This document shows positions 19,590 to 47,180 of a DNA stretch of 64,000 nt, piece after piece. Made by a program: the position numbers and the translations under genes. The notes beneath the pieces were generated by a model. The model saw nothing but the letters and a program-made list of their open reading frames with translations. It was not told where the DNA came from and did no database searches. Origin of the DNA: an uncultured bacterium (lineage in GTDB: Bacteria; Hydrothermota; UBA3073; NMUJ01; CBEVQO01); assembly GCA_965552055.1 (NCBI GenBank), contig CBEVQO010000001.1, positions 1 to 64,000 of the forward strand, given 5' to 3'. Numbering within the stretch: the stretch's first letter is position 1; each line of letters starts with the position of its first letter.

Positions 19590-19681
19590 TGGCGGAGAGG
19601 GTGGGATTCGAACCCACGACTCCCCTTGCGGGGAGTATGGCGTTTCCAACGCCACTCCTTAGGCCACTCGGACACCTCTCC
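19590..19681 (-). tRNA. tRNA-Ser(GGA)
   Basis: GGAGAGG acceptor stem, anticodon arm TGGCG-TTGGAAA-CGCCA, long variable arm, GGTTCGAATCC, encoded CCA. Confidence 0.96.
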
Positions 19682-35206: not shown

Positions 35207-36124
35207 ATGCGTTGCATTGTAACAGGAGGCGCTGGATTCATAGGATCACATTTAGTGGACGCTTTAATAGAGAGAGGTTATAAAGTTTTAATAATTGATG
35301 ATTTATCTACAGGTAAAGAAGAAAACATTAACAAAAAAGCGGAATTTGAAAAAATAAAAATCGAAGATGAAAAAATATTTGATATTTTAAAAAAATTCAA
35401 ACCAGATGCTGTGTTTCATTTCGCAGCTCAAATCGATGTAAGAAAATCTGTAAAAGACCCTCTTTTTGACACAAAAGTAAATGTGCTCGGTACTGTGAAT
35501 TTATTAAAAGCATCAGCTGATTGTAAAGTCAAATCTTTTATTTTTGCTTCTTCAGGTGGAGTTATTTATGGTGATGTTTTTGAACCTGCAAAAGAGAATC
35601 ATCCTGTAAATCCTCAATGTCCCTATGGTATCGCTAAATTATCGGGAGAATATTATGTGAAATTTTTTGGTAAAGAATATAGTTTCAAATGGGGTATTTT
35701 AAGATTTGCCAATGTTTATGGTCCCCGTCAGGACCCGAAGGGTGAAGCAGGAGTTTGTGCCATTTTCATCGGCAATATGATGAAAAAAAGACCTTGCAAA
35801 CTTTATGGATATGGTAAACTCGTTAGAGATTACATTTATGTCGAAGACGCTGTATCTTTAACTTTACAGGTTTTTGACAAAGGCGTATGCGATATTTTCA
35901 ATGCCGGAACAGGCAAAGGTACAAGTGTGATTGAACTTTTTAACATTTTAAAAGAATTTTTTGATTATAATATAGAGCCGATTCTTGAGGAAAAGCGTCC
36001 CGGCGAGCTGGAAAGTAATATTTTAAGTTATGAGAAAGCAAAAATATTACTTAATTGGAAACCTAAATATAGTTTAAAGGAAGGTCTCAAGAAAACTATT
36101 GAATGGTTTAAAAGAAGGTGCTAA
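35207..36124 (+). CDS. NAD-dependent epimerase (UDP-glucose 4-epimerase-like)
   Basis: TGGAGFIGSH, YGIAK, NVYGPRQDP.GEAGV. Confidence 0.9.
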   Translation: MRCIVTGGAGFIGSHLVDALIERGYKVLIIDDLSTGKEENINKKAEFEKIKIEDEKIFDILKKFKPDAVFHFAAQIDVRKSVKDPLFDTKVNVLGTVNLLKASADCKVKSFIFASSGGVIYGDVFEPAKENHPVNPQCPYGIAKLSGEYYVKFFGKEYSFKWGILRFANVYGPRQDPKGEAGVCAIFIGNMMKKRPCKLYGYGKLVRDYIYVEDAVSLTLQVFDKGVCDIFNAGTGKGTSVIELFNILKEFFDYNIEPILEEKRPGELESNILSYEKAKILLNWKPKYSLKEGLKKTIEWFKRRC

Positions 36125-36147
36125 AAAGTTATGTAATATTGATGATT

Positions 36148-36209
36148 TAGAAACGGGTCATGGAGGGCGAAGCCCTCCGAAAAATCTGTGGGTGGGCGGG
36201 TGGGATAAA
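36148..36209 (+). repeat. Dispersed ~62-bp hairpin + G-quadruplex element, copy 2
   Basis: GGAGGGC-GAA-GCCCTCC hairpin (36162-36178) and GGGTGGGCGGGTGGG (36190-36204). Confidence 0.9.
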
Positions 36210-36216
36210 AATAAAG

Positions 36217-36243
36217 TTGACATTTTTGAAAAATGAGTATATT
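36217..36243 (+). promoter_or_regulatory. Promoter TTGACA-N15-TATATT (rnpB)
   Basis: TTGACA 36217-36222, TATATT 36238-36243, RNA starts ~36248. Confidence 0.75.
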
Positions 36244-36247
36244 AATT

Positions 36248-36521
36248 GAGTCGGGCAGGTGCGCTCGCCCGAAAGGGAGGAAAGTCCGGGCACCATGGTG
36301 GGCACCCGGGGTTAACCCGGGGGATGTGGCGCAATACACGCCACATCACGGAGAGTGCCACAGAGAGCAGTCAGCCCTTCGGGGCGATGGTGAAAGGGTG
36401 GGGTAAGAGCCCACCGGCCGGGCTGGAGACAGCCCGGTGCTCGGCAAACCCTGCCCGGTGCAAGGCGTTAGCCGCTTAGACGAATGAGCGCTAAACAGAA
36501 CCCGGCTTACCTGCCCGGCTC
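36248..36521 (+). ncRNA. rnpB: RNase P RNA (reduced type-A-like)
   Basis: GAGGAAAGTCCGGGC (CR-I), AGTGCCACAGAGA, GGTGAAAGG, GGCAAACC, ACAGAACCCGGCTTA (CR-V); P1 ends are complementary. Confidence 0.96.
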
Positions 36522-36531
36522 GTTTATTACT

Positions 36532-37020
36532 ATGAAAACCTTTATCTGTATCGGAACAAACATGGGAAATAAATTGGAAAACCTTAAAAAAGCTTTAAAA
36601 TTTCTACCAAATGTTAAAAGAATATCTCACATTTACGAATCAGAACCCCTTGGTCCTAAAAATCAACCTTATTTCCTGAATTGTGTTGCAGAAATTGACA
36701 CAAAGTTATCTCCAAGAGATTTACTCAGAATGTTAAAGTCAATCGAAAAAATCATGGGAAGGAAAGAAAAAAAGAGATGGGGACCCAGAATAATTGACCT
36801 TGATATCCTATTCTATGGAGATTTGATAATAAAAGAAAAAGATTTAATCATCCCTCATCCGGGAATTTCTGAACGCAAATTTTTCGTTTATCCTCTTTGC
36901 GACTTAATACCCGATTTTATACATCCTGAACTTAAAATAAAAATTTATGATTTAAAAAGGAGGCTTGATGCAAGTGGTTTTGAGTGTAAAAGATATGCAA
37001 GACCTTGCCTCCTCGTATAA
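36532..37020 (+). CDS. folK: 2-amino-4-hydroxy-6-hydroxymethyldihydropteridine diphosphokinase
   Basis: GTNMG, FLNCV, RWGPRIIDLDIL, PHP..ER.F; start MKTFI at 36532. Confidence 0.92.
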   Translation: MKTFICIGTNMGNKLENLKKALKFLPNVKRISHIYESEPLGPKNQPYFLNCVAEIDTKLSPRDLLRMLKSIEKIMGRKEKKRWGPRIIDLDILFYGDLIIKEKDLIIPHPGISERKFFVYPLCDLIPDFIHPELKIKIYDLKRRLDASGFECKRYARPCLLV

Positions 37021-46702: not shown

Positions 46703-47108
46703 CTCGCTCAGTTTTACCTATTTCGCCTTCTTCAAAAGAAACTTCAAGAACCTTTGAAAAAACAATTTGCGCTATCCTCATTCCTTTTTCAATTTTAAAT
46801 TTCTCTTTCCCAAAATTAAAAAGGATAACTTTTATTTCTCCCCTGTAATCTGGGTCTATTGTGCCCGGAGAATTCAATAGCCCTATCCCATATTTTGCAG
46901 CAAGACCACTCCTTGGTCGGACTTGTGCTTCAACATCGTTTGGAAGTTCTATCGCAATACCACATGAAACAACTGCATATTCACCTGGATTTAAAATCTT
47001 CTCTTCGACAGAAAAAAGGTCATAGCCGGCGGAATAAGGGGTTGCTCTTACAGGAATTTTTGCATCGGGGCAAAGTTTCTTAATCCGTATTTTTATCATT
47101 CATAATAG

Positions 47109-47180
47109 CGGCCCCAGCGGGAGTCGAACCCGCGCTTTTGGCTTGAAAAGCCAATGTCCTAACCGCTAGACGATGGGGCC
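47109..47180 (-). tRNA. tRNA-Glu(TTC), CCA not encoded
   Basis: GGCCCCA/TGGGGCC acceptor stem, TTGGC-TTTTCAA-GCCAA anticodon arm, GGTTCGACTCC; followed by CTA. Confidence 0.95.

Follow-up and report, generated by a model that had tools for sequence, protein, structure and literature searches.

How much of its catalytic domain can a bacterial RNase P RNA shed and still mature the 5′ ends of tRNAs with a single protein? The question is raised by an rnpB locus in a 64,000-nucleotide stretch of DNA (the window) from an uncultured bacterium, whose phylum appears as WOR-3 or Hydrothermia in the source names of two relatives' proteins; one protein from the same order bears an archaeal label at odds with these names.

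Identity and layout of the RNA

The rnpB gene lies at positions 36248-36521 of the plus strand of the window, 274 nt from P1 to P1. The covariance model of type A RNase P RNA, RF00010, matched it at 36248-36525 (+), scoring 171.8 bits where the gathering score is 100 (E = 1e-53, cmscan), and was the best of its clan, in agreement with the reduced RNase P RNA of about 274 nt that the original prediction had read from the letters. An RF00010 search of the 2.23-Mb, 97%-complete genome found a single copy, and the GC content of the gene is 66% against 36% for the genome.

Thirteen helices were assigned by hand, with standard pairs throughout, and P11 was taken from the Rfam alignment. The hand-laid helices measure 12 bp (P1), 6 (P2), 3 (P3), 8 (P4), 4 (P5), 5 (P7), 6 (P8), 10 (P9), 2 (P10), 6 (P12), 6 (P13), 9 (P14) and 3 (P15). 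The features of the locus, with the basis of the main assignments, are the following.

36217..36243, plus strand: predicted sigma-70 promoter, with the -35 box at 36217-36222, a 15-nt spacer and the -10 box at 36238-36243 (from sequence)
36248..36294, plus strand: 5′ strands of P1, P2, P4 and P5, conserved region (CR) I and the 3-bp P3 hairpin (36268-36277, GAAA loop) (Rfam alignment, hand layout)
36295..36299, plus strand: P5-P7 linker of 5 nt without the P6 5′ strand; same-order relatives have an 8-nt linker with the strand (comparison of relatives)
36300..36456, plus strand: complete specificity domain with P7, P8, P9, P10/P11, CR-II, P12, CR-III, P13 and P14 (Rfam alignment, hand layout)
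36305-36321, plus strand: P8
36322-36349, plus strand: extended P9 with a 7-nt non-GNRA loop
36372-36389, plus strand: short P12
36397-36415, plus strand: P13
36417-36438, plus strand: P14 with a GNRA loop
36457..36473, plus strand: P5 3′ strand, then J5/15, then the P15 stub, with no L15 GGU, P16 or P17 (layout; in 16 stub RNAs the third pair shows a compensatory change)
36461-36463, plus strand: J5/15, intact
36464-36473, plus strand: P15 stub of 3 bp with a 4-nt loop
36474..36521, plus strand: J15/2 running directly into CR-IV (no P18), P2 3′ strand, short J2/4 (no P19), CR-V with the P4 3′ strand, and P1 3′ strand (Rfam alignment, hand layout)
36532..37020, plus strand: folK, starting 10 nt after P1, with panC next

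Conserved regions I-V and the P4 pseudoknot with its bulged U are all present, and P6, L15, P16, P17, P18 and P19 are missing. The 46 positions of the RF00010 P16/P17 block are covered by 4 nt and the 24 positions of its P18 block by none, and no GGU occurs in rnpB 3′ of the start of P15. The layout thus recovered what had been proposed by manual alignment: a P3 of CCC-GAAA-GGG, P5 passing into P7 with no P6 strand, a GGC-GTTA-GCC P15 followed by neither P16/P17 nor P18 and lacking GGU, and an absent P19, short P12, extended P9 and retained P13/P14, although the loss of P19 and the long P9 are common to relatives.

The RNA is far more stable than its shuffles (z = -5.6; none of 200 was equally stable). 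Nearest-neighbour folding alone gives low pairing probabilities to P2, P4, P5, P7 and P15 (0.11 at 37 °C for the P15 stub), so that the core of the fold, and the stub with it, is supported by comparison. The same 9-nt stretch occurs at 36450-36458 (P10/P7/P5 3′ strand) and at 36510-36518 (P1 3′ strand); this repeat could possibly let P1 or the P4/P5 5′ strand mispair during transcription, and so act as a folding trap. A pseudoknot between the long P9 loop and the P1 flanks or L12 was rejected, since by eye it offers four weak pairs at most and is absent in the same-order genomes G001-G003. Genome motif searches for a P16/P17 piece acting in trans, a weak test, gave scattered short matches and no P17-plus-L15 motif.

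Known RNase P RNA types and relatives in the phylum

Bacterial and archaeal RNase P RNAs are divided into types A, B, C, M and T in PMC7191817, where type A is defined by P6, P16 and P17. The host RNA fits none of the five in full. It lacks P6, P16, P17 and the L15 GGU of canonical type A; it keeps P13/P14, given as a type A mark in PMC1874661, and has no P5.1, P10.1, P15.1 or P15.2, and we therefore describe it as type-A-derived and not as canonical type A. The elements of types B and C (P10.1 and P15.1/P15.2, with P5.1 in B) are absent, the 274-nt layout leaving no sequence over. Type T is missing most of the specificity domain, whereas P7-P14, CR-II and CR-III are present here, and the type M lack of L15, P16, P17 and P6 is shared but its lack of P8 is not, P8 having 6 bp in this RNA.

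With type A (RF00010), including its P18-less forms, the RNA shares CR I-V, P1-P5, P7-P14, J5/15 and a single RnpA. P18-less type A RNA is found in Chlorobi. The RNase P RNA of Mycoplasma fermentans is similar in total size (276 nt) and is derived from type B. That RNA lacks P12, as described in PMC8172020, whereas the host RNA has a complete specificity domain and its cuts fall in the catalytic domain. A P18-less type A is also indicated for Aquificales by the title of a reference in PMC8457005. Archaeal type M (Methanococci, Archaeoglobi) likewise has no P6, P16, P17 or L15 (PMC3001054, PMC1874661), but it lacks P8 and P13/P14 and works with several proteins, where the host has P8, P13, P14 and a bacterial RnpA. 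The mitochondrial RNA of Reclinomonas americana, as reported in PMC3001054, is of bacterial type and also devoid of P6, P16, P17 and L15; it is organellar, whereas the host RNA is cellular and has its own RnpA.

The nearest relatives compared belong to the same order (G001-G003, family f2), no same-family genome being among them. Their RNAs are 340-341 nt long and already lack P18 and P19; their P3 is short and their P9 long, the latter similar in length to that of the host and different in sequence. They keep P6 and a 54-nt P15-P17 arm with GGU, so that the distance from J5/15 to CR-IV is 54 nt in them against 14 nt in the host. On whether close relatives carry P16-P18, a check named in the original prediction, the same-order RNAs answer in part: they keep P16/P17, which counts against the prediction, and lack P18. 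The absence of P19 is thus ordinary (all three relatives lack it too), and what is specific to the host among those compared is the loss of L15/P16/P17 and of the P6 5′ strand, together with the short P12.

Across the phylum, 121 of 151 genomes passed the RF00010 cut-off, and the host RNA has the shortest full-length span (278; the next is 306). The L15 GGU is present in 43 of 45 relatives' RNAs (the motif search gave 44, G020 being misplaced by eye), and the remaining two have AGU at the L15 site in an intact arm. A pattern for a short distance between J5/15 and CR-IV matched 68 of 272 phylum genomes; by eye, all of these matches except that of the host begin inside P18 or P16/P17, and the P15 stub was not found in any other of the 272. 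(An earlier pattern, replaced as too loose, had matched 130 of the 272, mostly noise among the matches listed.) Loss of the arm is therefore specific to the host branch among the 272 genomes searched, which include none of its own family. Since the same-order RNAs show the state before the loss, reduction was likely stepwise: P18 and P19 would have been lost before the split from the same-order family, and L15/P16/P17, the P6 strand and most of P12 later, on the host branch.

Locus, protein partners and substrates

From the sequence of the predicted promoter, transcription of rnpB would start at or adjoining G36248, the first base of P1. Among promoter-like sites genome-wide, spacers of 15 nt (416 sites) are about fourfold commoner than those of 16 nt (93) or 17 nt (106), and purines rise at offsets 5-6 past the -10 box. 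Just upstream of the promoter, a GC-rich intergenic stretch (36123-36215) recruits many unrelated run contigs, which fits a multi-copy repeat. The genes flanking rnpB are an epimerase-family gene on one side and folK/panC on the other. No terminator was found between P1 and folK, and rnpB, folK and panC are likely co-transcribed; the 3′ end of the RNA would therefore arise by processing.

The genome encodes a reverse gyrase (TIGR01054, 1108 bits), an amino-acid index suggests about 66 °C, and of the sequencing runs with matching contigs X2 and X4 are labelled hydrothermal vent and X3 marine sediment. On these grounds the host is likely a thermophile. With RNAs of thermophiles, folding may hamper the complementation of an E. 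coli or B. subtilis rnpB strain, as PMC8457005 reports for Thermus.

The rnpA gene lies on another contig (G000:C6:122858-123169) between rpmH and yidD, in the order rpmH-rnpA-yidD. Its product of up to 122 aa scores above the TIGR00188 and PF00825 cut-offs, has an intact RNR motif and shows no extension when aligned with 18 relatives. HARP (PF08745) had no match in the 97%-complete genome, and neither RnpM/YlxR (PF04296) nor Pop5 (PF01900) matched in it, while the controls for all three did. The extra or unusual protein support that the original prediction had envisaged was thus not borne out among the known factors searched, and inspection of rnpA and HARP returned an ordinary RnpA (122 aa, RNR intact) and no HARP.

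Elsewhere in the phylum the enzymes are distributed differently. All eight members of family f4 (G005, G007, G009, G011, G013, G015, G017 and G019; loci L039-L044) have HARP and none has rnpB or rnpA; rnpB is absent from all five genomes of family f30, whose tested member, G093, has HARP (L137); and HARP, rnpB and rnpA occur together in all six genomes of family f12. Families f4 and f30 are apparent RNA-free RNase P lineages in WOR-3.

We consider it probable that the RNA, type-A-derived and with a catalytic domain of P1-P5 and a P15 stub, is the sole RNase P RNA of its host and matures tRNA 5′ ends with the ordinary RnpA. It would be transcribed from its own promoter at P1 and freed from the folK-panC transcript. 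The intact specificity domain would grip the tRNA elbow, J5/15 would contact base -1 and RnpA would bind the 5′ leader, as in the substrate contacts described in PMC3378863, and the substrate would be held without pairing between 3′-CCA and L15. The L8-P4 and L14-P8 contacts would be the remaining struts, aided by the short GC-rich helices. Removal of P15-P17 from the E. coli RNA reduces cleavage 10^3-10^4-fold with activity remaining (PMC3299987), the CCA contact is reported to benefit the RNA by itself more than the holoenzyme (PMC4919922), and one of the L8-P4 and L18-P8 contacts is described as able to maintain domain orientation (PMC8457005). From these results we predict RNA-alone activity far below that of the E. 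coli RNA, largely rescued by RnpA to an adequate holoenzyme. The B. subtilis enzyme cuts CCA-less precursors in vivo (PMC1874595).

According to the same report, the B. subtilis test strain was killed or crippled by L15 G-to-C mutations (PMC1874595), and the R. americana RNA was inactive under the conditions tested in PMC3001054 and active with archaeal proteins, so one RnpA may not suffice. It might then be that the stripped RNA, like archaeal type M and certain mitochondrial RNAs, needs a second protein in addition to RnpA, which we regard as rather unlikely. The losses in its catalytic domain match those of type M and of the R. americana RNA that needs archaeal proteins in vitro (PMC3001054); according to PMC12974513, losses in bacteria are often paired with added RNA elements and those in archaea were likely tolerated via proteins; the host RNA has no added element except the long P9 common to its relatives; and the reverse gyrase points to a high growth temperature. 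Against such dependence, HARP, RnpM/YlxR and Pop5 are unmatched in the genome and RnpA is unremarkable, the flanking genes are those of an epimerase family and of folK/panC, and three equally bare Patescibacteria RNAs come from genomes of 0.7-0.8 Mb that encode RnpA and gave no match to Pop5.

CCA is encoded in 7 of 46 host tRNA genes, and U stands at -1 in 22 of the 46. The proposal that CCA-less tRNA genes caused the loss of L15 is contradicted by two genomes: in G001, which keeps L15, CCA is encoded in none of 36 tRNA genes examined (loci around the 30 best of 46 matches), and in G467, which has the stub, in 17 of 35 distinct genes (30 best of 43 matches, three duplicates dropped). The scarcity of CCA-encoding genes may have relaxed selection on L15 here and was at most permissive. 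At the other end of the tRNA, the score of an RNase Z-like protein falls short of the curated cut-off, and there are two genes of the tRNA nucleotidyltransferase family (L237:1255-2724 and L239:361-1563, on host contigs C4 and C2), for one of which the A-adding model gives the highest score, under the cut-off of that model; the pair are possibly split CC-adding and A-adding enzymes.

For 20 of 37 last-in-cluster tRNA genes in the host (G000), the start codon (ATG) of an ORF of 80 aa or more lies no further than 15 nt downstream, against 9 of 27 in G001, 2 of 29 in G467 and 3% at random positions; examples in the window are at 19590-19681 and 47108-47180, both on the minus strand. Such tRNA genes may serve as punctuation, in which case processing would free nearly leaderless mRNAs. 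In G467, ARAGORN calls one tRNA with a stop-reading anticodon (tta) and one for Ile (tat).

A 15-nt-spacer promoter ends 6-11 nt before the mature end in 18 of 37 first-in-cluster tRNA genes, and the predicted pre-tRNA leaders are therefore only a few nucleotides long. Leaders this short, together with the long branch of the host rnpB in the tree (below) and the example of family f4, of the same class, with HARP in 8/8 and rnpB and rnpA in 0/8, could mean that the RNA is decaying under relaxed selection on its way to loss or protein-only replacement. This is improbable: none of the conserved regions is broken and every helix assigned by hand is fully paired, a second strain has no substitution within rnpB, the genome holds no HARP to take over, and G001, with its full RNA, also has promoter-like boxes near tRNA genes (by eye). 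Moreover, all nine tRNA-tRNA junctions have spacers of 0-1 nt, and tRNAs so clustered still require cutting, so the demand for RNase P remains.

Origin of the shape and its meaning

The same shape occurs in Patescibacteria. Strict patterns found 11 and 5 loci in the named genome collection, which are lower bounds, the anchors matching 8 of 46 known phylum RNAs. Five of the 11 are true short-P15 RNAs labelled Patescibacteria, three without P18 and two with it; the others are one full-length RNA, one non-RNase-P sequence, two loci that are masked and two short loci without an explanation. RF00010 matched 144 of 151 Patescibacteria genomes, and among nine short CPR RNAs aligned, four have lost P13/P14 and five have the P15 stub. 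The host RNA is not the smallest bacterial RNase P RNA, as G160, G236 and G283 have model spans of 267-275 through loss of P13/P14 and P18.

A looser pattern matched 52 of 401 Patescibacteria genomes, of which 18 have a closely similar stub, while in about five others the short stem is of another kind. Seventeen of the 18 were parsed (G450 was left out); in 14 the P5-P7 linker carries an additional hairpin, which may compensate for the losses and has no counterpart in the host, and in G249, G596 and G635 the linker is as bare as in the host. A neighbouring gene is named Dojkabacteria in G467 and only 'bacterium' in G249, and all five stub-bearing genomes tested encode RnpA. These RNAs share with the host a 3-bp P15 leading into CR-IV, the absence of L15 GGU, P6, P16, P17, P18 and P19, the retention of P13/P14 and an encoded RnpA. 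They differ in belonging to another phylum and to genomes of 0.6-0.9 Mb, compared with 2.2 Mb here with reverse gyrase and folK/panC; the aligned ones span 284-304 model positions against 278, and the host RNA is much GC-richer, with a 3-bp P3 and a long P9. In eight further Patescibacteria genomes (G657, G239, G644, G284, G507, G551, G605 and G670) L15 is seemingly a terminal loop, mostly with GGU, and P16, P17 and P18 are missing, an apparent intermediate form.

In an alignment of 16 stub RNAs (the host and 15 Patescibacteria), all 48 of 48 cells of the stub pair. Two of the pairs are invariant and the third is U-A in 13 RNAs and C-G in 3, a compensatory change; the covariation sought for the stub was thereby found, outside the host lineage. 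A tree of 62 RNAs over CR-I to CR-V (G029 was left out at parsing) placed the 17 Patescibacteria stub RNAs in one clade (100/100) and the host, with modest support, beside the same-order family (87/70) on a long branch (0.84). Joining the host to the 17 was rejected (p-AU 0.005, with the host RNA on a long branch), and because the AU test rejects a common clade, the stub shape likely arose in the host independently of Dojkabacteria.

A single origin, in which the whole of rnpB or its 3′ portion came from a donor resembling Dojkabacteria, would fit the 88% mean column identity over the 57 columns from P15 to CR-V. That stretch is mostly universal core, however, and from CR-I to CR-V the host RNA shows 57-68% identity with those of 44 relatives in its phylum, compared with 54-61% for the 17 stub RNAs; with the joint clade also rejected (p-AU 0.005, subject to the long-branch caveat), we hold acquisition to be very improbable.

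That the sequence is genuine was seen in contigs from four runs (X1-X4, from four studies and among 16 listed runs), compared over 36000-36800. One X1 contig spans 36000-36796 unbroken with 10 substitutions in 797 nt and none within rnpB, for which the chance is 0.015 if substitutions are uniform. The P15 junction is also crossed by contigs of X2, X3 and X4, with X4 running across the P5-P7 linker as well, and the metagenome contig L103 has the same junction with 8 differences elsewhere in 1572 nt. One of the compared contigs may be the window's own source, while X1, X2 and L103 differ from the window outside the junction. P6 has lost its two strands at sites about 170 nt from each other, an outcome that one collapse would not give. 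RNAs at L101:337-689 (labelled Pseudolabrys), L097:181-525 (labelled Desulfuromonadales) and L106 (unlabelled) have 17-30 nt from J5/15 to CR-IV and look like collapses from P16 to P18. Such errors may therefore exist, L097 and L101 of the collection scan being apparent examples, but with an identical junction in the contigs of four runs and in L103, and with two sites 170 nt apart both shortened, that the missing arm is an assembly collapse is hardly credible, and the deletion artefact that had been a concern is set aside by the recurrence of the junctions.

Short forms of RNase P RNA have precedents. PMC8172020, published in 2021, reports that CPR RNAs often lack P13, P14, P16 and P17, that 23 of 35 are without the CCA-pairing motif, and that one Dojkabacteria RNA lacks nearly all of P15; PMC12974513, a survey of 337 bacterial RNAs that may already include the host shape, describes P6 as lost independently multiple times in bacteria. 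The suggestion of a distinct minimal structural class accordingly holds in that the RNA falls outside the five types of PMC7191817, and does not hold as to distinctness, the same architecture being present in a Patescibacteria clade and in the one Dojkabacteria RNA of PMC8172020. In the literature searched, mostly non-subscription, we found no description of a WOR-3 RNase P RNA of this form. What is likely new is an independent case of the stub, found in a genome of 2.2 Mb that encodes reverse gyrase; the shape itself has the brief Dojkabacteria precedent. A bolder reading, which we think unlikely, is that a near-minimal two-domain ribozyme, with a type-M-like catalytic domain and without compensating RNA struts, matures the tRNAs of a thermophile through a further protein or a new RnpA contact, and forms with the Dojkabacteria RNAs an uncatalogued convergent bacterial type.

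The L15-CCA contact, like the struts formed by P6 and by L18-P8, is usually held to be important for bacterial RNase P, and model species are harmed when these elements are mutated. An RNA of 274 nt that occurs in nature, is GC-rich and likely thermostable, and lacks all three while its specificity domain is whole, is a test of rescue by a single protein, and the same-order relative, which differs mainly by the P15-P17 arm and P6, provides a natural add-back control. WOR-3, with its apparent HARP-only and dual-system families, offers a compact setting for the evolution of RNase P. Together with its Patescibacteria twins, the RNA suggests that a minimal catalytic domain has been reached on more than one occasion and is not just a quirk of reduced symbionts.
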